DNA of 64,000 nucleotides from Oryzomonas japonica (GCF_008802365.1 NZ_VZQZ01000011.1:129501-193500), one strand, 5' to 3'; numbered from the stretch's first letter, positions 1-53,400 are shown. The notes: generated by a model from the sequence alone, not told the origin. Numbers and translations: made by a program.

Positions 1-468
1 TGCCCTGAGGGCGGCCTTCACTTCCGGCGGCACAAACCGGTCGATGTTCCCGTTCAGCAGACAGACCTCCTTGACGATGGAGGAGGAGAGATAACCGTAT
101 TGCAGCGATGTCATCATGAACAGCGTCTCGACGCCTTGCCCGATCGTGCTGTTCATCTGGGCGATCTGAAACTCGTATTCAAAGTCCGATATGGCGCGCA
201 GCCCCCGGATGATGACATGTGCCCGCCGTGAGGACACATAATCTATCAGAAGGCCGCTGAAGGTGTCAACAACCACCCGCGGCTCCTCCCTGAACACATC
301 GCGGATCAGGGCGACCCGTTCGTCGATGGAAAACAGGGGGTTCTTCTGGGAGTTGGCGGCCACCGCCACCACCACCTGATCGAAGATCTTCAAGCCGCGG
401 TTTATGATATCCACGTGACCGTAGGTGATGGGATCGAAGGAACCGGGATAGACAGCGATCTTTTTCAT
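1..468 (-). CDS. coaD: phosphopantetheine adenylyltransferase CoaD. C-terminal few residues lie beyond the window start
   Basis: Reverse-strand translation MKKIAVYPGSFDPITYGHVDIINRG... shows the nucleotidyltransferase HxGH motif. The ATG at 468..466 overlaps the rsmD stop (ATGA). The ORF runs to position 1 without a stop. Confidence 0.85.
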   Translation of the reverse strand, partial: MKKIAVYPGSFDPITYGHVDIINRGLKIFDQVVVAVAANSQKNPLFSIDERVALIRDVFREEPRVVVDTFSGLLIDYVSSRRAHVIIRGLRAISDFEYEFQIAQMNSTIGQGVETLFMMTSLQYGYLSSSIVKEVCLLNGNIDRFVPPEVKAALRA

Positions 469-1040
469 GCGTCCTCCAACATAAAGAACTCCAGTGCCGT
501 GTCACCGTAAACCCGGCGATCACACTTGATAAGCGTCCCTACCCGTTCGGGCAGTGGATTGCGCGCCGCGCATTCCACGATCAGCACCCCGTCATCCGCC
601 AGCAGGGACAGGCCGCCTACCGCCTCCGGCACGGTATTGTAAAGGGCAGAGGCATAGGGGGGATCAAAGAACGCCACATCGAAGCGCCGTCCTTGTGACG
701 CCAAGAGACGCAAGGCCTTGAGACAATCGAGGGTAAGGACCTGAGACCGGGCGGTAAGGCCGGTGGCCTCCAAATTTTTTTCCAGAACCGCCTGTACGTT
801 CCTATCATGCTCCACAAAACAACAAAAGGCCGCCCCCCGGCTGAGGGCTTCGACCCCCAGGCTCCCGGTTCCCGCGCAGATATCCAGCACTTGGGCATCT
901 TCAAGGTCACGGCGGCTCGTAACGATGCTGAAAAGTGCTTCACGGACCCGGTCGGCTGTAGGACGGGTTTGCATCCCGCGGGGCGCCGCAAGCTTCATTC
1001 CCCGCACACTGCCCGCAATTACGCGCATTTTCGGCGTCAC
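465..1040 (-). CDS. rsmD: 16S rRNA (guanine966-N2)-methyltransferase RsmD
   Basis: 191-aa ORF with the N6-adenine/N2-guanine methyltransferase DPPY motif (FFDPPYASALY) and the SAM-binding DICAGTGSLGVEALSRGA. The coaD-rsmD pairing is conserved in many bacteria. Confidence 0.8.
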   Translation of the reverse strand: MTPKMRVIAGSVRGMKLAAPRGMQTRPTADRVREALFSIVTSRRDLEDAQVLDICAGTGSLGVEALSRGAAFCCFVEHDRNVQAVLEKNLEATGLTARSQVLTLDCLKALRLLASQGRRFDVAFFDPPYASALYNTVPEAVGGLSLLADDGVLIVECAARNPLPERVGTLIKCDRRVYGDTALEFFMLEDA

Positions 1041-1209
1041 CTTTCCTGTATACTCTATCTGGCGAAAGCTACATTAAAACAGTATAGGCGTCAAGTCGGA
1101 AGCACTCCAGGCAAAAAATGACGCGCTGCGGAAAAAACAGTTGAAAACAAACCATGCTCCAGTACAATGGCGCAGTCGGGCTTATCCTTGAAAATGTTAA
1201 GGAATTCAC

Positions 1210-2144
1210 GTGAACACAGGACGAGCACTACCATACCGTTTCGTGCGCCTCATGGTGCTGGCGGCCTCACTGAGCGTTATTCTTCAGGGGACTGCGGCGG
1301 CTGTCCAATGGCGCCCCCTGGCCCGTACGGCGCGTCATGACGTCGCCGTTGATATGGATTCCCTGAAACTGACCCCCCTGGGCAGGGTGACCGTCTGGCT
1401 CAGGTTCACCCCCCTCGGCGAACCGCAGCGCAAACTGGCTGCCGGCGAATATGGCGAAAAACAGTACCGCCTCCACCTGGAATATTACGAAATAGATTGC
1501 AGTGAACAGACCGATATCCTGGGACTCATCGACATCATTGGACCGGATGGAAAACGGTTGGCGAGGATGAAGGGGGGGGGGCGCTGGCAGCCATCTTCCC
1601 CGGCTCGGCGCTCGACCTGGCCGCCAAACAGGTCTGCCCGTCATTTGAGGATGAAACCGTTTCGGACGATGAGATGGAAACGCCGGACAGCAACGACACG
1701 GCGGAGGCGACCACACAACAGGTCCCTGAAGAGGTCCGCACACGCATTGCCGCGGCGCTCCAGAAGACACAACGGGAACCGGGCGATCAGGCAGCCTGGC
1801 GCGAGCTGGGAAATGCCTATTACGACGGCGACCAGCCCCAGCAGGCCATTGAGGCCTATGACCGGGCACTGGCGCTCACCCCCGACGATGCGGACATACT
1901 TAACGACCAGGGGGCTATGTACCGTCAGCTAGGCGATTTCACGCGAGCCCTGGCAAATTTCGAGAGGGCGCTCAAGATCGCGCCCTATAACCTGGAAAGC
2001 CTGTATAACGTCGGATACGTCAATGCCTTTGACCTGAACCGCATGGACAAGGCGCGGGAGGCGTGGCGCCGTTACCTGGAACTTGACCGGACCAGCGAGA
2101 CCGCCCTCCAGGTTCAGGGGTTCATCGAACGTTACAACAAATAA
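1210..2144 (+). CDS. secreted signal-peptide protein with C-terminal TPR domain, interrupted by a +1/-2 frameshift at a G10 homopolymer (1572-1581)
   Basis: The ORF at 1210 (signal peptide MVLAASLSVILQGTAAA) turns into Arg-rich nonsense right after the G10 tract. A different frame reads cleanly through the tract (..GEDEGGGALAAIFPGSALDLAAKQVCPSFEDE..) into the TPR ORF 1674..2144 (AYYDGDQPQQAIEAYDRALALTPDDADILNDQGAMY). Inserting one G would fuse both into a protein of about 310 aa. Confidence 0.5.
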
Positions 2145-3269: not shown

Positions 3270-4202
3270 ATGAAACAAATTGCTTTTGCAATGTACCTGA
3301 TCTCGGCGGTAGTCGTCTTTGCACTAAACGGTTGCGGTGGAGGAGGTGGCGGAAGCGGTACCCCAACTGTTTCTGGGGTCGCAGCTAGCGGAGCGCCTAT
3401 GAGCGGCACTGTATTTATGAAGGATTCTGCAAATAATCCCGAAATGAGTACTACGATCAATGCACAAAGCGGAGCATTCTCGTTCAATGTTAGCGGTAAA
3501 ACGGCCCCTTACATGCTAAGAGCTGGTACGCTCTATTCAATGAGTAGCGGTCCGGGAACGGCCAACATTAACCCTCTGTCGCACCTGATGGTGGCGGATG
3601 CGGCAGGATTTGCCAATATGTCATCCATGAATGCCTTCTATAATAATCCGAATGGAACGCAAATGGGCACCATTTCGGGAAACATCGGTACAGCCAGGCA
3701 ACATATGCAACAAAAGATGGCGCCATTGCTAAGCGCATATGGCGTTGCCAATGTAGACCCAATTACGGGATCTATAACAATTGGTTTGGGGCTTGATAGA
3801 ATGTTTGATGACGTGAAAATGACTATCGATGCCGGCGGCAACGTATCCATGATGTATGTGAATGGTACTAGCGTATATACGGGATCAATGGCAAGTATGT
3901 CGTCCGGCACTATGATGGCAGGAAATATTGTCACGCCGGCTACAACGCCGACGGCTAGCGGCATAACCATAACGCCTAGTGTCGCCAAAATGCAGATAAA
4001 CGGACCAACACAACAGTTTACGGCCAATATTTCCGTGACGTGGTCGGTGATAACTCCGAACGGTGGCACTATTACACCCGGCGGACTTTATACGGGACCC
4101 GCTAGGCAGGGGATGTTTCTCGTTAAAGCTACCAGTACTGTTGACCCGACTAAATCATCGACAGCTATTGTTCTGATGGGAAGCGGTGGAATGATGATGT
4201 AG
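3270..4202 (+). CDS. lipoprotein with C-terminal Ig-like (Big_2-type) domain, hypothetical
   Basis: Lipobox ALNGC followed by a GGGGGGSG linker. Met/Ser/Gly-rich body. C-terminal segment ITITPSVAKMQINGPTQQFTANISV...TPGGLYTGPA resembles bacterial Ig-like group-2 domains. RBS AGGAGG 7 nt upstream. Confidence 0.65.
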   Translation: MKQIAFAMYLISAVVVFALNGCGGGGGGSGTPTVSGVAASGAPMSGTVFMKDSANNPEMSTTINAQSGAFSFNVSGKTAPYMLRAGTLYSMSSGPGTANINPLSHLMVADAAGFANMSSMNAFYNNPNGTQMGTISGNIGTARQHMQQKMAPLLSAYGVANVDPITGSITIGLGLDRMFDDVKMTIDAGGNVSMMYVNGTSVYTGSMASMSSGTMMAGNIVTPATTPTASGITITPSVAKMQINGPTQQFTANISVTWSVITPNGGTITPGGLYTGPARQGMFLVKATSTVDPTKSSTAIVLMGSGGMMM

Positions 4203-4236
4203 TAACCATCCAACGCATGACTGTTGGGAGAAGCAC

Positions 4237-5862
4237 ATGTCTGTGATGATCGGCCCGGCTAAAAGAAATCTGCGGCGAGTGATGCCGCGACTCATGCAAA
4301 TTATGCGTGTGCTTGCCCGGCACAAGTTCCTGGGCGCCCTACGCGGCAAGGGACATTGGCCTCCACCGAAAGAGGTCCGGGAAACCTTCGAGGAACTGGG
4401 ACTCACCTTTCTTAAATTCGGACAAGTACTCGCGATGCGACGAGATCTGCTGCCGGACGCCTACATCGATGAGTTGGAATTGCTGCATGACCAGTTGCCG
4501 GCGATGAGCACGAGCACAATGCGCGCCAGAATTGAAATAGAACTTGGCGCGCCATGGACGAAATTGTTCGCCTCGTTCAATGAAACGCCGATAGCTTCTG
4601 CCACCATTGCCCAGGTGCATGAAGCGACACTGCTGGACGGGCGTCACGTGGCCGTGAAGGTGCAGCGGCGCGGCCTTGAAAAGATGATCTCCACGGATAT
4701 CGCGGCAATGACCTATCTGGTAGCATTGGTGGAAAGTTTCTTTCCTCGTTTAATTGCGCTCGACCTCCCTGTTCTGGTGCAAGAATTTGCCAAAAGTCTG
4801 AAAAGGGAAACCGATTTTCAACGTGAAGCGCGCTCCATAGTGCTCTTTCGCACTGCGCTGGCGGATATTCCTGACCTCTGGATTCCGGATGTCGTGTCTG
4901 AGTTCTCGACCGGAAACATTCTCACAATGGAGTTCTCTGCTGGTGAACGTGTAGATATCTACGCAAAACAACAACCTGAAGCTATGCCGCGGGCGATCAA
5001 CACCCTGGTTAGGCTTATGCTACAAACTATTTTCGAAGAGGGATTGTTCCACGCAGATCCGCATCCCGGCAATGTGTTGGTTCTGCCCGATGGACGGCTC
5101 TCCTTGCTTGATTTCGGGATGACGGGTGAGCTTGACGAGTCGATGCGCGAATCGCTGACGCTCCTGCTCGAAGCGGTCGTGAAAGGCGATGCCCGGGCCG
5201 CCAAAGAGGCGTATCTTGAAATGGCACCGCAGGGGAGCGAAAAGGTCGATCGTGCGGAGTTGTTGATGGACATAAAGGCCGTACTCACTGAAATTCACAG
5301 GAGCGATCTTGCTGTTGTTTCGGTCGGGGAAGTGTTCGATTCGCTGCTGCGCGCCGGGAGCCGAAACGGAGTCCACAATCCCCCCGAGTTTTTCCTGCTG
5401 ACGCGTGCCTTCGTCATCCTGGAATCGTTGATACGTCAACTCGATCCGGGCCATAACTACATGGGATCGTTTCGAGAAGAAATCAAACGCCTGACCGCGC
5501 AGCATTTTTCACTGGGGCGGATAAAGGAAAAAACAAGCAAGCTGGCGCGCGAAATGGAACGCTTGATGAATGATGCGCCCGGTGACACGCGACGTGTCCT
5601 CCGACGTATCGCTGAAGGCAACCTGGGCCGCTTTCAGGCTCCGGCTATTGAAGCATTAGGGGGTCGTGTCAGCCGCAACCTAGAACTGCTCACCAGCGCC
5701 ATCATTTCTGCGGCGCTTATGGTCGCTGGAGCGTTGATGGTGAGTACACCACCGGACGCCGGATTGCATCATAATGCCGGCGAAGTAATGGTTACCGCCG
5801 GAATCTTTAGCACGATCTTTATTGCTGTCAAAGCAATACGTCGCGACCGTGGCCGACGCTGA
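4237..5862 (+). CDS. ubiB: ABC1/UbiB-family atypical protein kinase (ubiquinone-biosynthesis-type)
   Basis: 541 aa. aarF/ABC1 signature FNETPIASATIAQVHEATLLDGRHVAVKVQRRG, catalytic HADPHPGNVLV and two C-terminal TM helices. Confidence 0.75.
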   Translation: MSVMIGPAKRNLRRVMPRLMQIMRVLARHKFLGALRGKGHWPPPKEVRETFEELGLTFLKFGQVLAMRRDLLPDAYIDELELLHDQLPAMSTSTMRARIEIELGAPWTKLFASFNETPIASATIAQVHEATLLDGRHVAVKVQRRGLEKMISTDIAAMTYLVALVESFFPRLIALDLPVLVQEFAKSLKRETDFQREARSIVLFRTALADIPDLWIPDVVSEFSTGNILTMEFSAGERVDIYAKQQPEAMPRAINTLVRLMLQTIFEEGLFHADPHPGNVLVLPDGRLSLLDFGMTGELDESMRESLTLLLEAVVKGDARAAKEAYLEMAPQGSEKVDRAELLMDIKAVLTEIHRSDLAVVSVGEVFDSLLRAGSRNGVHNPPEFFLLTRAFVILESLIRQLDPGHNYMGSFREEIKRLTAQHFSLGRIKEKTSKLAREMERLMNDAPGDTRRVLRRIAEGNLGRFQAPAIEALGGRVSRNLELLTSAIISAALMVAGALMVSTPPDAGLHHNAGEVMVTAGIFSTIFIAVKAIRRDRGRR

Positions 5863-6352: not shown

Positions 6353-6478
6353 ATGATGGACCATACAGGCGGATGGATGGGTGGATGGGCTGGCGGACAG
6401 ACGTGGTTTTGGGCAGCGCTCGCCGTACTGGTGGTGCTGGTCGTAGTGTTTAAGAGTCTGTCCAGGAAAAATAAGTGA
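6353..6478 (+). CDS. 41-aa single-TM peptide (MMDHTGGWMGGWAGGQTWFWAALAVLVVLVVVFKSLSRKNK)
   Basis: Strong RBS AAGGAGG 7 nt upstream of ATGATG. Gly/Trp-rich N-terminus then one TM helix. Confidence 0.35.
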   Translation: MMDHTGGWMGGWAGGQTWFWAALAVLVVLVVVFKSLSRKNK

Positions 6479-6516
6479 GTTCACTACTCGTCCATGAAAT
6501 CCACTAACTATCCATA

Positions 6517-6858
6517 ATGAAGCAGTTCAAAGATGTCAATACGGTCCGGATTCTAACAGAAGGGCAAGCAAAAGCTCTTGATGTTCAGGGAGCTGACGAC
6601 AAGGCCGTCTCGGCAATCTCGCCTCCCCGGCTGTTGAGTATCACGGCAGTTAAGGACAAGGGCGCCAAGGAAGTTGAAGAGGTTAACGCCTTCTTTGACC
6701 GGCCTGTTGATGTGAAAGAGCTGCGGATGACCTTGCAGGACGGCACTCCCCTTGAAGGCGACATCTACCTCTCTGTCTTTGACATGGCAGCGGTATTGAA
6801 GCCCAAAACTCCATTATTGTTCAAGGAAAGTTTGCCATCAAAGTGCGATGGAAGGTGA
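6517..6858 (+). CDS. hypothetical protein
   Basis: 113-aa ORF with coding-like composition and no family recognised. Confidence 0.5.
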   Translation: MKQFKDVNTVRILTEGQAKALDVQGADDKAVSAISPPRLLSITAVKDKGAKEVEEVNAFFDRPVDVKELRMTLQDGTPLEGDIYLSVFDMAAVLKPKTPLLFKESLPSKCDGR

Positions 6859-17376: not shown

Positions 17377-17404
17377 GGCGACGTGGTAGTAGGCCTCCAG
17401 CAGG

Positions 17405-17600
17405 CTGTTGAAAAAACCTGGTTGTTCAAAAATAGTCAGATCGTCGCACCCGCAGGAAGCCCCGCGGAGGCGTAGCAGCGCTACGCCGCACAATTTCACT
17501 CGAGAAATTGGACCGCGAAGGCGCCCGAAGGGTGAGGCCGCAGGCCGAAGTCACAAGGAGGCTTTCGAGGACGCGGCGAGATGGCTGTTTTTCAACAACC
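17405..17600 (+). repeat. MITE-like intergenic repeat, copy 1 (196 bp; carries an extra internal insertion of about 60 bp)
   Basis: Shares CTGTTGAAAA..CAGGTTGTTCAAAAATAGTCAGATCGTCGCACCCGCAG, the hairpin GGCGTAGC-AGC-GCTACGCC, and the 3-prime end GAGATGGCTGTTTTTCAACAACC with copies at 19359, 22248 and 52389. Termini are inverted repeats (GGTTGTTCAAAAA / TTTTTCAACAACC). Confidence 0.8.
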
Positions 17601-17602
17601 TG

Positions 17603-18517
17603 TCAGGCCTCCAGAGCCCCGATCAGGCTCTTCACATCTTCAACGCCGTTTTCCGCCAGCCACTTTTCCATGCCTTCAGCGATTTCCTGCGCAGCACCCG
17701 GATTGATGAAACTGGCGGTCCCGACCTGCACCGCCGTCGCCCCGGCCAGGATGAATTCCAGGGCGTCGCGGGCGTTCATGATGCCGCCGATGCCGATGAT
17801 CGGCAGGGAAACGGCTCGAGCCACCTGCCAGACCATGCGCAACGCCACCGGCTTGACCGCCGGGCCAGAGAGGCCGCCGGTAATGTTGGCCAGCACCGGC
17901 CGGCGGCGCTCCAGGTCGATGGCCATGCCGGTCAGGGTGTTGATCAGCGACAGGGCGTCGGCCCCCGCATCGGCGCAGGCCTTGGCCATGGAGACGATAT
18001 CCGTGACATTGGGCGAGAGCTTGACAATCAGCGGCTTGATGGTGGCCTCGCGGCAGGCCGTGACCACCTGGAAGGCACACTGGGGATCGGTGCCGAAAAC
18101 GATGCCCCCCTGCTTGACATTGGGGCAGGAGATATTCACCTCCAACCCGGCGATCTCGGGGATGGCGTCCAGACGGCGGGCCAGTTCGGCGTACTCGTCG
18201 ATGGTGTTGCCGAAGAAATTGGCAATGGCCGGGGTGGCGACCGAGCGGAGGAAGGGGACCTTTTTCTCGATAAAAGCGTCGATGCCCACGTTCTGGAGGC
18301 CGATGGCGTTCAGCATGCCGCCCGGCGTCTCCACGATGCGCGGCGTGGGATTGCCGGCCCGGGGCCTGAGGGACAGCCCCTTGGTCACGAAGGCGCCGAT
18401 AGTTTCCAGGTCCACGTATTCCGCAAATTCCTCGCCATAGCCGAAGGTACCCGAGGCGGTCATCACCGGGTTGCGCAGTTCCAGCCCTGCAATGGATACA
18501 GACAGGTCAGGTTTCAT
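17603..18517 (-). CDS. pyrD: dihydroorotate dehydrogenase, class 1B catalytic subunit
   Basis: [31 protein letters not shown]... is the typical PyrD-1B N-terminus. Lies immediately downstream of pyrK. Confidence 0.85.
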
Positions 18518-18521
18518 GGTT

Positions 18522-19340
18522 TCAGGCCTCCCACTTCAGTTCGGCAGCGTCGAAGACCGGTCCATCCGCACAGACGCAGCGATAATCGGGTGTTTCGTTG
18601 GAATGATGGTGGCCGGGGGTGACACACCCCAGGCAGGCCCCCATGCCGCAGGCCATATACCCCTCAAGGGAGACCTGACAGGGTATGTTCCTCTGGGCGG
18701 CGATGCCGGCCACGGCGTTCAGCATGCCATGGGGGCCGCAGGCAAAGATGCGCGGCGTACCGTCGCAGACAGCCAGCCGTCTGACCAAGGCCTCGGTCAC
18801 CAGGCCACATTCCCCCAACGACCCATCCTCGGTGGCCACATAGCACTCCACCCCCAGGCGCTCGAATTCGGTAATGCAGAGGACGTCGTCCCGCGTCCTG
18901 CCGCCGACAAAGAGTCGCACCGGCGACTGTTTCACCAGTTCCTTGGCTAACAGGTAGAGCGGCGCCAGCCCAACGCCCCCCCCCACGATAATCTTTTCCT
19001 CCTTGGGAGAGCCGAGCTCGAAGCCCTTCCCCAAAGGCCCTAAGACATCCAGCAGATCGGTGTCATGCAGCGCCGAAAGCATGCCGGTCCCCTTCCCCAC
19101 CACCCGGTAGAGCATCTCCAGGTAGGGTTGGGATGCGGCGCCGGTCTGGGCCGGGGTATGGACACCCACGTCGAAGATGCCGAAAGGACGCCGCAGGAGC
19201 GGATCGATGGCATCATTCACCCGCACCATCACGAACTGCCCCGGTTGGGCCGCGGGGAACTCGGAGGGAGCGGTCATGCGCATGCGCCAGTAGCCGGGCG
19301 AGACCTCCACGTTGGATATGATCATGGATTTGAACTGCAT
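18522..19340 (-). CDS. pyrK: dihydroorotate dehydrogenase electron-transfer subunit
   Basis: FAD/NAD-binding ferredoxin-reductase-like fold with a C-terminal 2Fe-2S Cys cluster (CGMGACLGC). Adjacent to pyrD. Confidence 0.8.
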
Positions 19341-19358
19341 CTAACTGTCTCCTTGGAA

Positions 19359-19494
19359 GGTTGTTGAAAAACAGCCATCTCGCCGCCATCCTCGAAAGCC
19401 CTTTCGTGCGGCGTAGCGCTGCTACGCCTCCTCAGGGCATTCTGCGGGTGCGACGATCTGACTATTTTTGAACAACCTGAGTTTTTCAATAGCC
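19359..19494 (-). repeat. MITE-like intergenic repeat, copy 2 (inverted orientation)
   Basis: Reverse complement aligns with copies 1, 3 and 4 across the whole length, including the GGCGTAGCGCTGCTACGCC hairpin. Confidence 0.8.
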
Positions 19495-19504
19495 TGTCAG
19501 GCTC

Positions 19505-22086: not shown

Positions 22087-22247
22087 TCCAGCACCCGTCT
22101 TCACGGCATCTTCGCCCCGCCCTCAATCGCACAATCCTCGACGTAGCGCTGCTACGCCTGCGGTCTTGCTCAATCGGCCAGGGCAAATCTTCCGCAAATC
22201 CGGGCGCGGTCCTGGTGGCAGTTATTTATGGATAAGCTCTAAAAAGG

Positions 22248-22381
22248 TTATAGAAAGACTCAGGTTGTTCAAAAATAGTCAGATCGTCGCACCCGCAGAA
22301 TGCACCGAGGAGACGTAGCAGCGCTACGCCGCACGAAAGGGCGTTCGAGGATGGCGGCGAGATGGCTGTTTTTCAACAACC
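22248..22381 (+). repeat. MITE-like intergenic repeat, copy 3
   Basis: About 90% identical to copy 4 over 134 bp. Confidence 0.8.
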
Positions 22382-22388
22382 TGTTCCA

Positions 22389-34154: not shown

Positions 34155-36686
34155 ATGTACGATGCTGTAGCCCTCTTTTCCTGGATTGCCCATCATTACT
34201 ACTACTTTCTCGCCTTTACCGTCCTTGTCATCCTGCTCTGGAACTCGGTGGTGGTGGTCGGCGGCAACGAGATCGCCCTTATCGAACGCAGGTGGTTCGG
34301 CAGCAAGATGCCCCAGGGACGGGTCGTGGCCCTGGGCAAAGAGGTCGGCATCCAGGCGCGGACCCTCGGCCCCGGCCTGCATTTCCTGATTCCATTCATC
34401 TACAAGGCAACCAAGAGCGTCTTTACCGAGATTTTGGAGAACGAGATAGGCCTGATCGAGTCAGTGGATGGCTCGGCCATCCCCTCCGGACGAATTTTTG
34501 CCACGGTGGTGGCCGGCCATAACTCCTTTCAGGACGGCGAAACCTTCATCAAAAACGGCGGCCAGAAGGGGCCACAGATCGAGGTGCTGCCTCCGGGCAA
34601 ATACCGGATTAACCCCTACCTGTTCAAGCTGACCAAGGGGAGTGTCACCGAGATCAAGGATTTCGAGATCGGCATCGTGGAGTCGGTTGACGGCGTCGCC
34701 ATCCCGGAGGGAAAGATCTTTGCCCAGGCAGTGGCAGGCCACTCGTCCTTTCAGAACGGCGAGGCATTCATCACCAACAGCGGCCAGAAGGGGCCACAGA
34801 TCGAGATCATCCCGCCGGGCAACTACCGTATCAACCCCTATCTGTTCAAGGTAACAAAAGGCGAGGCCACCAAGATCAATGAAGGGGAGATCGGCCTGGT
34901 CGAGTCTGCCGATGGTTCTGCTATACCGGCCGGCCGCATCTTTGCCAATGTGGTGCCGGGACACAACTCCTTCCAATCCGGCCAGGATTTCATCAAGAGT
35001 GGCGGCCAGAAAGGGCCTCAGACAGAGATTCTGCCGCCGGGCGTCTACCGTATCCATCCGAATCTCTTCAAGATCACCAAGGCCGCAGCCGTGGTAATCG
35101 CCAAAGGCGAGGTCGGCATGGTCACGGCCCAGGACGGCGCCCCCATCCCCATGGGGCGGCTCCTGGCCCAGAGCGTACAGGGACACTCCAATTACGAAAA
35201 CGGCGAGGTGTTCCTGAAGAACGGCGGCCAGAAGGGCCCCCAGATCGACGTGCTGCTGCCGGGCACCTATCGCATCAACCTGAACCTGTTCCAGGTGCAG
35301 GTTGCTCCCGCCGTGGTCATCGAGGCCAACAAGGTCGGCCTGGTAACCGCCCTGGACGGCATCCCGCTGCCGGAACGGGAATACGTGGCCTCCCCCATCA
35401 GTGGCCACAACGATTACCAGGACGGTTCCGCCTTCCTGACCAAACAGGGACAACGCGGCCCGCAATTGGACGTGCTGCGGCCGGGCACCTATTACATCAA
35501 CCCGTTCATGTTCAGCGTAGAACTCGATGATGTGGCCGTGATCGAACGCGGTCAGGTCGGGGTCGTGGTGTCGAACGTGGGCGAGGACCCCACGGAGGAA
35601 ATGAAGAAACGGCTCGGTTCCTCACAGAATGGCGCCACTGAGGAAGAAGGCAAGGAAAAGTATGTCGTGCCCACGGGATTCCGCGGCATCCAGGAGGAGG
35701 TGGCCGGTCCGGGGCGCTATTACCTCAACCGCCGGGCTTTCATGGTGTACGTGATCGACACCACCAACATCACCATCGACTGGGACGACCAGGAAGACAC
35801 CCGCTTCGACCAGTTGACGGTCATTTCCAAGGACGGCTTCCCGATCCAGGTTTCGGTCAAGGTCGTGATCCGCGTGCGTCCGGACCAAGCCCCCTACATG
35901 GTGGCCAAGGTCGGCTCCATCGACAACCTGATCCAACACGTCATCCACCCCATGATCGACTCATCGTTCCGTAACCAGGCTTCCACCGCCTCGGCCATGA
36001 ACTTTCTCCAGAGCCGTTCGGAGGAGCAGACCAAGGCCGAAAACCGTGCCCGGACAGATCTTGAGCGCTATCACGTTGAGTGCGTGTCGGTCCTGATCTG
36101 CCAGATCCGCCTGCCCGAGGAATTGATGCAGACCCAGACCAAGCGGATCATCGCCGAGCAACAGCAGGAGATGTACAAGATGGAGCAAAGGTCCCAAGCG
36201 GAGCGCACCGAGATGGAGAAAATGCGCGCCACCGCCGACCAGCAGCCCACCCTGGTGGCATCGGAGATTGCCGTGAAGGTGGCCACCCAGAAGAAGACCG
36301 AGATGATCACCCTGGCCGAAGGCACGGCAGAGTCCAAGGCCTTGGAAGGCGTCGGCGAGGGCAAGCGGCTGAAGGCCATCGGCGACGGCGAAGCGTCCAA
36401 GATCGCGGCCATCGGTGAGGCGACCGCCCAGGCCTACAGCAAACAGCAGGAGGCCATCGGCGAAGAGGCCATCAAGCAGATCAAGATCGTTGAGCTGATC
36501 TCCACCGCCATCCAAAACGGCAACATCAAGATCGTCCCGGATGTCTTGGTCACGGGCGGCGGCAATGCCACGGAAGGGCTGATGGGGATGCTGACGAAAC
36601 TGCTGCCCGGAGTGGATATACCGGCGTTGGTGAAACAATCCGCACCATCTGCCGCGATAGGGCGACCGGAGTCGGGGCGGGCGTAA
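34155..36686 (+). CDS. flotillin/SPFH (band-7) family protein with N-terminal TM and five tandem 74-aa repeats
   Basis: RBS AGGAGG 6 nt upstream. TM anchor. Repeated SPFH-N-like units (EIGxVESxDG..IP.GrIFA..V.GH..FqnGe.F...GGQKGPQ.e.LpPG.YRINP.LF). C-terminal flotillin coiled-coil/EA-rich region (EQQQEMYKMEQRSQAE...). Confidence 0.8.
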   Translation: MYDAVALFSWIAHHYYYFLAFTVLVILLWNSVVVVGGNEIALIERRWFGSKMPQGRVVALGKEVGIQARTLGPGLHFLIPFIYKATKSVFTEILENEIGLIESVDGSAIPSGRIFATVVAGHNSFQDGETFIKNGGQKGPQIEVLPPGKYRINPYLFKLTKGSVTEIKDFEIGIVESVDGVAIPEGKIFAQAVAGHSSFQNGEAFITNSGQKGPQIEIIPPGNYRINPYLFKVTKGEATKINEGEIGLVESADGSAIPAGRIFANVVPGHNSFQSGQDFIKSGGQKGPQTEILPPGVYRIHPNLFKITKAAAVVIAKGEVGMVTAQDGAPIPMGRLLAQSVQGHSNYENGEVFLKNGGQKGPQIDVLLPGTYRINLNLFQVQVAPAVVIEANKVGLVTALDGIPLPEREYVASPISGHNDYQDGSAFLTKQGQRGPQLDVLRPGTYYINPFMFSVELDDVAVIERGQVGVVVSNVGEDPTEEMKKRLGSSQNGATEEEGKEKYVVPTGFRGIQEEVAGPGRYYLNRRAFMVYVIDTTNITIDWDDQEDTRFDQLTVISKDGFPIQVSVKVVIRVRPDQAPYMVAKVGSIDNLIQHVIHPMIDSSFRNQASTASAMNFLQSRSEEQTKAENRARTDLERYHVECVSVLICQIRLPEELMQTQTKRIIAEQQQEMYKMEQRSQAERTEMEKMRATADQQPTLVASEIAVKVATQKKTEMITLAEGTAESKALEGVGEGKRLKAIGDGEASKIAAIGEATAQAYSKQQEAIGEEAIKQIKIVELISTAIQNGNIKIVPDVLVTGGGNATEGLMGMLTKLLPGVDIPALVKQSAPSAAIGRPESGRA
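34443..35552 (+). repeat. intragenic tandem repeat, 5 x 222 bp (encodes the 74-aa units of the flotillin-like protein)
   Basis: Units begin EIGLIES, EIGIVES, EIGLVES, EVGMVTA and KVGLVTA with conserved GGQKGPQ..LPPG.YRINP cores. Degenerate copies flank on both sides. Confidence 0.7.
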
Positions 36687-52360: not shown

Positions 52361-52388
52361 GATTCTCTCCGAAGTAGGGTATTTGCGA

Positions 52389-52522
52389 CTGTTGAAAAGC
52401 TCAGGTTGTTCAAAAATAGTCAGATCGTCGCACCCGGAGAAGGCCCTGAGGAGGCGTAGCAGCGCTACGCCGCACGAAAGGGCTTTCGAGGAGGGCGGCG
52501 AGATGGCTGTTTTTCAACAACC
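52389..52522 (+). repeat. MITE-like repeat, copy 4 (inserted inside the nif-like operon between the nifH-like and DUF1847 genes)
   Basis: Aligns end-to-end with copy 3. Confidence 0.8.
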
Positions 52523-52524
52523 TC

Positions 52525-53400
52525 TTAGATGCTTGCCCCGCTGCTGCGGACCTCCCCGGCCTCAACGGCCAGGATCTGATCGGACCAGTCGGCGGCCCAC
52601 TTGCGCAGCGCCTCCGCGCTCAGCGGCTCCGGCACCCTGGATTCCGTGTGGTTGGCGATCCGGTCGGCAAGCTTCTTATAGACCTGGGCCTGCTCGGAAT
52701 CGGGGAAGGCCTCGATGGTGGTCTTACCCTGCAACTCGGCCTGGGTGACGGTGATCGAACGAGGTACATACTCCATCACCTGGGTGTTGGTGCGTGCCAC
52801 GAAGTCGTCGATGATATGTTTGGCATAGGGTGCATTGACGGAGTTGGCGATCACGCCGCCCAAAAGTGCCCCACCGTTGTTGGAGTACTTCTTGATGCCG
52901 GTGAACAGATTGTTTGCGGCGTAAATGGCCATAAAGTCCGACGACGACACCGTGAAAACGTGCTCGGCGATCCCTTCCCGGATCGGTACGGCAAAGCCGC
53001 CGCAGACCACGTCCCCCAGGACATCGTAGATTACGTAATCCAGGTCCAGTTCCTCGAAAACCCGTTGCTGTTTGAGCAGCTCAATGGCGGTGATAATGCC
53101 GCGACCAGCGCAGCCGACCCCCGGCGCGGGGCCGCCGGCCTCCACGCAGTGGACGCCGTTGAAACCGGAGAAGACCACCTCGCTGGCCTTGGCGCTCTTC
53201 TTTTCCCGCAGGGTGTCAAGGATAGTGGGTATATAGTTGCCCCCCCGCAGGGTGACGGTGGAGTCGTTCTTGGGGTCGCAGCCGACCTGCATGACCTTGT
53301 AGCCTGCTACCGACAGGGCGGCGGTGATATTGGAGGTGGTGGTGGATTTACCGATGCCTCCCTTGCCATAGATCGCTATCTGTTTCGGTTTTTTTGCCAT
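52525..53400 (-). CDS. nitrogenase Fe-protein-like ATPase (NifH/BchL/CfbC/MarH family)
   Basis: P-loop [15 protein letters not shown], switch [10 protein letters not shown] and both 4Fe-4S ligand cysteines (GVGCAGRG; DVVCGGFA) are conserved. 291 aa. Confidence 0.85.

Follow-up and report, generated by a model that had tools for sequence, protein, structure and literature searches.

A dispersed family of 140-bp palindromic elements with MITE features at gene ends in Oryzomonas and related Geobacteraceae

Among the small repeats that populate bacterial intergenic regions, the ERIC/IRU families of the Enterobacteria and the Correia/NEMIS families of Neisseria duplicate the dinucleotide TA. Both are imperfect palindromes of approximately 105–160 bp that lie in transcribed intergenic regions near gene ends, are highly conserved across species, vary in size through insertions at set internal positions and form long hairpins in co-transcripts (see PMC3184786). 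MITEs mobilised by IS5-family transposases are likewise small and non-coding, are enriched in non-coding DNA and have terminal inverted repeats flanked by a 4-bp YTAR direct repeat, as IS5 itself has (PMC5009759), and IS711, a member of the same family, uses a YTAR target of which TA alone is duplicated (PMC2266754). Within the Geobacteraceae, the MITE Chunjie of Geotalea uraniireducens Rf4, the one Geobacter MITE that has been named, is characterised as an A+T rich element of 178–235 bp with 21-bp terminal repeats and a stable hairpin (PMC3184786) and with variable direct repeats of 9 bp, for example ACGACCGGT (PMC6042816), which can insert into an operon without breaking it. Palindromic intergenic families have also been recorded in Geobacter bemidjiensis and G. 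metallireducens as 'multicopy nucleotide sequences', one of them in genes and without a frameshift.

The stretch of Oryzomonas japonica DNA analysed here (64,000 nt, NZ_VZQZ01000011.1:129501–193500, hereafter the window) contains four copies of a repeat which probably belong to a family of non-autonomous DNA transposons (MITEs) that spread among some of the Geobacteraceae, namely Oryzomonas, Pelotalea and several 'Geobacter sp.'. Short and without coding capacity, the repeats possess terminal inverted repeats as well as 4-bp target-site duplications, and occur as dispersed copies with insertion polymorphism. They share with IS5-mobilised MITEs all of the features listed above and differ from them in a tandem-duplicated left end and in the lack of a parent IS with matching ends in the approximately 1.1 Mb of loci searched; it is by the target signature that they may be assigned to the IS5 type. 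With the ERIC and Correia families they have size, palindromy, location near gene ends and internal-insertion variants in common, whereas their sequence is unrelated, no Rfam match was obtained, the host clade is another one and a 4-mer is duplicated instead of TA.

All four copies were recovered at the positions and in the orientations given in a preliminary description of the window: copies 1 (17401–17602), 3 (22244–22383) and 4 (52385–52524) lie on the plus strand and copy 2 (19357–19496) on the minus strand. The sizes of 134–196 bp named there pointed to a real small element but missed its extent, the canonical length being 140 bp and that of copy 1 202 bp; similarly, the terminal inverted repeats reported are present but the true ends are CAGG...CCTG, and the sequence described as a conserved 5' leader exists but duplicates the left terminal repeat in tandem. 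The apical palindrome GGCGTAGCNNNGCTACGCC (form GGCGTAGC-NNN-GCTACGCC, up to 2 mismatches), previously noted as a conserved internal hairpin, occurred five times in the window against an expectation of 0.01, and the terminal 13-mer GGTTGTTCAAAAA (up to 2 mismatches) ten times against 1.1. Mean column identity was 70% in an alignment of the four copies including their flanks, with an almost invariant core, and the copies have a GC content of 53–58%, compared with 59% for the window.

The flanking genes named earlier (GGDEF/DHO_dh (pyrD), pyrK/GNAT and Pyr_redox/Aldedh) were borne out, as was the absence of an adjacent transposase: the neighbours of the window copies are housekeeping genes, and no transposase is encoded inside the copies either. 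Copy 1 consists of the outer left repeat CAGGCTGTTGAAAAA, a hairpin interrupted by an internal module (module C, see below) and the right repeat TTTTTCAACAACCTG; it borders with its 3' end, at a distance of 0 nt, on the stop codon of pyrD (TCA at 17603–17605), and an orthologous copy exists at a metagenomic locus, L083. Copy 2, a canonical element of 140 bp, sits between the stop codon of a GNAT (rimI-like) gene and the start codon of pyrK in the same sense as both genes, at a site that is empty in the relatives L084–L091. Copy 3 (140 bp) has a degenerate leader, AAGGTTATAGAAAGA, and ends 5 nt from the stop codon of the aldehyde dehydrogenase gene, and copy 4 (140 bp), located between DUF1847 and NifH-like genes, ends directly at the TAA of the NifH-like gene (TTA at 52525–52527, gene on the minus strand). 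The intergenic region that holds copy 3 also contains, approximately 100 nt upstream of it and in reverse orientation, a fifth fragmentary copy reduced to the apical hairpin (GACGTAGCGCTGCTACGCC, 22140–22158, minus strand), which probably survives from an earlier element that has decayed. Copies 1 (+) and 2 (−) bracket the pyrK–pyrD operon as inverted repeats (17401–19496), a layout also present in L083; since relatives lacking the copies keep the pyrK–pyrD gene order, the two are independent insertions and not the ends of a composite transposon that has moved.

When a 20-mer from the 5' arm was compared with 185,579 species genomes, at least 82 loci were found, in genomes of Pelotalea chapellei, Oryzomonas and Geobacter. 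Among the matches listed, approximately 18 were in P. chapellei DSM 13688 and approximately 18 and 13 in two Oryzomonas MAGs, and others were in Geobacter sp. UBA6151, OR-1, L1geo and other Geobacteraceae; the window is approximately 86% identical to an Oryzomonas contig over several kilobases. Two cyanobacterial matches had nothing beyond the 20-mer in common with the family and were set aside as chance, and a plasmid collection searched for the element gave no match. Some MAGs labelled Syntrophobacteraceae and Nitrospirae also have true copies on short contigs (L032, L045 and L073, of which the L045 copy has a divergent interior), which may reflect horizontal transfer or mis-binning. A 30-kb contig that is classified as viral contains one short-form copy (L163, IMG/VR UViG_3300025030_000335, 6400–6530), a possible route of horizontal spread. 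At three P. chapellei contig ends (L005 2520–2587, L038 1–68 and L056 1–57) three independent copies are broken by one common sequence, CAACCGTGTTCTCTGTCAAGTGAAAGC..., each time behind GCGGAG at the base of the apical hairpin, which suggests a multi-copy IS that specifically targets the element.

The unit, delimited by CAGG 19 nt upstream of GGTTGTTC and by the position 2 nt past CAACAACC, is 140 bp long and has the layout CAGGYTGTTGAAAAA-CTCA-(119-nt hairpin)-TS; in a profile of 66 copies, conservation begins 22–23 nt upstream of GGTTGTTC and ends 6–7 nt after CAACAACC. The terminal inverted repeats of the unit comprise 15–16 bp (left CAGGYTGTTGAAAAA, right TTTTTCAACARCCTG). Two tandem copies of the left repeat occur, an outer one that forms the leader and an inner one that starts the hairpin and differs from the outer by one G-to-C change (compare CAGGCTGTTGAAAAACT with CAGGTTGTTCAAAAATA); each of them can pair with the right end TTTTTCAACAACCTG. 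The leader is missing in approximately one in five copies. The entire element is a single long imperfect palindrome that can form a hairpin of approximately 55 base pairs with the apex GGCGTAGC-AGC-GCTACGCC, and, with deletions or internal modules, copies range from 83 to 262 bp. No described IS was matched by CAGGYTGTTGAAAAA in the searchable full text; the ends of IS903 and of IS427-group elements may resemble GGCTTTGTTGAA or GAGGCTGT, which we take as a lead only. On locus L071 a different element of 144 nt (1734–1877) has the shared termini CAGGTTGTTGAAAATC ... GATCTTCAACAACCTG around an unrelated interior, lies directly after a stop codon and is accompanied by a second, partial copy at 1–52; such shared termini are expected if a transposase recognises the ends.

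The element has no conserved coding capacity: the consensus contains stop codons in five of the six frames, and translation of the open frame gave 15 matches, all of them to 'hypothetical' proteins. The family explains spurious ORFs, as well as contig breaks and odd intergenic hairpins, in genomes and MAGs of the Geobacteraceae. In one P. chapellei locus (L043) a canonical copy (1229–1372) is located inside an aminotransferase-like ORF of 485 aa (376–1833, minus strand) and is translated through in frame, element plus duplication amounting to 144 bp, or 48 codons; this copy is comparable to the Geobacter family found in genes without a frameshift.

Support for transposition came from the flanks. 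In 10 of the 45 copies with a recognisable leader, the 4-mer preceding CAGG was identical to the 4-mer following CCTS (permutation mean 2.3, maximum 9 over 20,000 permutations, p < 5e-5), and many further flank pairs differed by one base. The matched 4-mers were CTAA (four times), TTAG and TTAA (twice each), CTAG and CTTA, i.e. mostly YTAR, and as they include non-palindromic sequences in direct orientation, they are target-site duplications and not part of the inverted repeat; the latter possibility was ruled out because the flanks are direct repeats and not reverse complements of each other. A duplication of TA only, as in IS630/Tc1- or IS711-like elements, was ruled out as well, given that bases outside the TA co-vary between the flanks (CTAA/CTAA, TTAG/TTAG). 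Flanking repeats longer than 4 bp, including 9-bp repeats, gave no general signal above controls, copy 1 being the sole exception. In the short forms at L067 and L052, TTAT/TTAT repeats were found at the inner CAGG/AGG, so that the inner repeat can also serve as the left end.

Filled and empty sites were compared at 80 loci obtained by a metagenome scan with the PyrD protein of the window. The element was absent from 79 of them; only L083, the closest pyrD locus (94% amino-acid identity), was filled, with copies at the same two sites as in the window. Upstream of pyrK, several close relatives (for example L084, L088, L090 and L091) have the empty arrangement ...AAAAATCCCTCAAGGAGACAG(A)TAG-ATG with YCAAGGAGAC uninterrupted, and L083 reads ...GGCC-CCAA-(element)-CCAA-GGAGAC..., a comparison that supports a 4-bp duplication of CCAA, although it is the one clean empty-site comparison and the left flank of the window has diverged there (CTGA versus CCAA). 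Conversely, L041 and L064 carry copies where the window is empty; in the Oryzomonas contig, two intergenic regions are filled in this way. No clean empty site was obtained from the orthologous pairs L016/L048, L036/L049 and L041 or L064 versus the window (79–93% identity), the intergenic DNA of which was too diverged or filled by other repeat families. Other hairpin families occupy places where the orthologue has the MITE (L016 at approximately 4040–4180 and 5290–5460, L049 at approximately 3760–3900; CACAGAGGCAC...GTGCCTCTGTG and CCCCTCCCC...GGGGAGGG types), and different repeat families land in the same short intergenic gaps of these genomes. The family offers a marker by which strains of these environmentally important metal reducers can be typed and insertion polymorphism can be detected.

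Four recurrent insertions at fixed sites, designated modules A–D, account for the copies of 156–262 bp: module A (80 nt) lies in the 5' arm, module B (39 nt) in the apical loop, module C (63 nt) after the apex and module D (approximately 76 nt) in Pelotalea copies. The insert of about 60 bp that had been noted in copy 1 is indeed present (17492–17554, plus strand, 63 nt, AATTTCACTCGAGAAATTGG...GAAGTCAC, just 3' of the apical hairpin), but it is not private to this copy, being module C, which also occurs in Oryzomonas and metagenomic copies (L018, L067, L071 and L083). Orthologous copies differ in their modules (C in window copy 1 versus A+C in L083, C in L018 versus B in L020, B in L051 versus A+B in L081), differences that are most simply accounted for by gene conversion between copies or by hairpin deletions that remove modules. 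Modules A and B were not found outside family copies in the loci examined. At L075 (5847–5912), module C (AATTTCACTTGTGAAATTGG...GAAGTCAC) is present without recognisable flanking family sequence and may have an independent existence.

Copy 1 also departs from the 4-bp rule. It is flanked exactly by a 12-nt direct repeat (left GTAGGCCTCCAG at 17389–17400, right TCAGGCCTCCAG at 17603–17614, both read on the plus strand), which corresponds to a duplication of the last three codons and the stop codon of pyrD, the right repeat being the reverse complement of these codons. The repeat is kept in L083, where the counterparts of the pair are CTGGAGGCCTGA and CTGGAGCCCTGA (around 3901–3912 and 4198–4212), and the 12-nt repeat is a single ancestral event. 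An inversion between copies 1 and 2 was considered as its source and rejected, the pattern of the flanks being unfitting.

For the MITE family, a mechanism can be proposed in which a DDE transposase supplied in trans would recognise the terminal repeats and insert the element into 4-bp targets with a preference for YTAR, duplicating the target in the manner of the IS5 group. TAA and TAG stop codons would provide the YTAR sites at which insertion does least harm, so that copies would accumulate at gene ends and fill short intergenic gaps. Co-transcribed with its neighbours, the element would then form a very stable hairpin followed by a U-run, possibly acting like a bidirectional terminator or a 3'-end stabiliser; compensatory substitutions would uphold the stem, and modules A–D would be swapped between copies, most simply by gene conversion. 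Several observations speak against this explanation, namely that a perfect 4-bp repeat was present in only the 10 of 45 copies mentioned, that copy 1 has a 12-nt repeat, and that the near-invariant arms exceed what transposase binding usually needs. The lack of a parent IS in the loci searched, the single clean empty site, and the orientation bias and the negative terminator scan described below count against it as well.

The position of the copies relative to genes was assessed independently of any gene caller. In 33 of 69 copies the stop codon of a long ORF (at least 100 codons) starts at +3 (28 copies) or +4 (5 copies) on the 3' side, compared with 4 of 69 at the equivalent 5' position (−22). 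By a codon-usage gene caller, 50 of 63 copies have a 3'-side gene that lies on the strand opposite to theirs, with a distance of 1–3 nt in 30 of these 50, and in five copies an upstream ORF enters the leader and terminates at the leader TGA. Window copies 1, 3 and 4 obey this rule of the 3' end facing a gene end, and copy 2 is of the minority type. The location at stop codons is expected from the YTAR target and makes the family a clean case of a stop-codon-landing MITE, which together with its 4-bp duplication adds exactly the 48 codons noted above, but a symmetric YTAR target offers no explanation for the 33:4 orientation bias.

This bias and the conservation of the structure are the features of the family that deserve further attention. 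The preliminary description had proposed folding the RNA, and the 119-nt core indeed folded at −60 to −72 kcal/mol on the forward strand (z −7 to −8.5), compared with −48 to −54 kcal/mol on the reverse strand. The forward RNA is thus 12–20 kcal/mol more stable, because the three fixed wobble positions are all G-U on that strand; among the polymorphic positions, G-U on the forward strand was counted 28 times and A-C 14 times. In an alignment of 38 canonical copies, which are of common ancestry, 96.1% of the cells contained standard pairs, 10 pairs showed changes on both sides compared with 3.7 in shuffled alignments (none of 500 shuffles was as high), and by all five measures the alignment surpassed each of the 500 shuffles as well as all slid controls. 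In the middle helix, seven of nine pairs covary; there is little variation in the outer 25 pairs and in the apex, and approximately 32 nt of each arm are near-invariant across genera. These data show that the hairpin is kept by compensatory changes, which may reflect selection on RNA or on single-stranded DNA, or template-switch correction of quasi-palindromes. Such an upheld hairpin, along with internal modules exchanged between copies, makes the family noteworthy.

Whichever strand is read, UUUUU(C/G)AA follows the stem. A simple terminator scan of the element, which needs a loop of 3–8 nt and scores a contiguous stem, made no call; the G+C-rich stem and the UUUUU on both sides nevertheless lead us to predict that, wherever it is co-transcribed, the element probably acts as a terminator or as a 3'-end stabiliser. 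A sigma-70-like motif, TTGAAA-17-AATAGT, spans the leader and the 5' arm and is directed into the hairpin in three of the four window copies (17408–17436, 19489–19461 on the minus strand, and 52392–52420). If this putative leader promoter were active, it would give rise to an RNA of approximately 85 nt consisting of the hairpin and the U-run.

The elements might therefore be functional RNA modules first and transposons second, i.e. mobile bidirectional terminators, 3'-UTR stabilisers or small hairpin RNA genes whose transcript is selected and for which transposition is the means of spread, a reading that we consider unlikely but worth stating. Put in its strongest form, which we regard as similarly doubtful, the element would be a domesticated mobile RNA module and not a passive parasite, each long-form copy having its own promoter, built from the duplicated left end, and being a hairpin small-RNA gene of approximately 85 nt and a bidirectional terminator that is placed precisely at stop codons, preferentially in one orientation. 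Such a module would account for the G-U bias on one strand, the compensatory evolution of the stem, the near-invariant arms and apex, and the orientation bias relative to the adjacent gene, and both the U-runs and the promoter-like motif would fit. The sites of insertion point the other way, since the orthologous sites in most related genomes lack the family, the neighbouring genes are mutually unrelated and both orientations are found. Moreover, with its 3' end towards the gene, the element usually contributes its reverse strand to the mRNA of that gene, so that for most copies this mRNA contains the less stable strand, the −35 motif is missing from the short forms, and template-switch correction gives compensatory change in palindromes without selection. 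Should the orientation bias reflect a function, be it termination, protection of 3' ends or a small RNA borne by the element, the family would lend itself to studies of how mobile hairpins rewire operon boundaries. Apart from two tRNAs, the window gave no Rfam match at gathering thresholds, and the repeats themselves gave none; an E-value scan at copy 4 gave E = 1.6 for the best match overlapping the element and E = 0.16 for the best match in the region (hya, in the flanking gene), all matches in this region being far below their own gathering scores.

A MITE is also what Chunjie is, and the family could be Chunjie itself or a subfamily of it, which appears quite improbable. Both occur in the same bacterial family, form very stable hairpins (PMC3184786) and insert into operons without breaking them, the module-bearing copies overlap the size range of Chunjie, and the unusually long direct repeat at copy 1 would be in keeping with it. 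By contrast, the descriptions of Chunjie give variable 9-bp direct repeats (PMC6042816), 21-bp terminal repeats, 178–235 bp and A+T richness, compared with 4-bp repeats, 140 bp and approximately 55% GC (53–58% in the window copies) here, a separation made by description, and the open frame of the element matched no protein from a named isolate. None of the family motifs occurs in the alignments that supplement the genome papers on G. bemidjiensis and G. metallireducens, in which palindromic intergenic families of a similar kind are catalogued, and searchable full text yielded none or irrelevant primer matches. The term 'novel' used in the preliminary description therefore holds so far as Rfam and the searchable literature go and as far as the features of Chunjie set it apart; the family seems to have been undescribed before, and it is an ordinary kind of element.

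It is very unlikely that the repeats are REP/BIME-like units moved as single-stranded DNA by a RAYT or an IS200/IS605-type HUH transposase. The hairpin, its strand-asymmetric mismatches (G-T on one strand), the biased orientation of insertion and the intergenic location of the copies would agree with such a mode of movement, but direct 4-bp flanking repeats are no product of HUH transposition, and the 15-bp terminal inverted repeats are common to the L071 sibling element with its other interior. In addition, 140 bp is far above the size of REP units (20–40 nt), the copies are solitary, and neither a GTAG-type REP head nor BIME-like clustering was seen.

A local segmental duplication of one regulatory region, which the preliminary description had named as the finding that would overturn a dispersed family and which the presence of three of the four window copies within 5 kb might suggest, can practically be dismissed in view of at least 82 loci on many contigs and in several genera, the unrelated flanks of the four copies and the empty sites in relatives. 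Integron attC sites, which follow cassette ORFs and have the core sites 5'-RYYYAAC ... GTTRRRY-3', were considered too and ruled out, as the element reads 5'-GGTTGTT...AACAACC-3' on both strands, i.e. with the opposite polarity, and has housekeeping genes as neighbours. Apart from the family, the window contains four tandem repeats of 222 nt (74 codons) at 34392–35297, which are 68–83% identical and probably encode a repeated protein domain.
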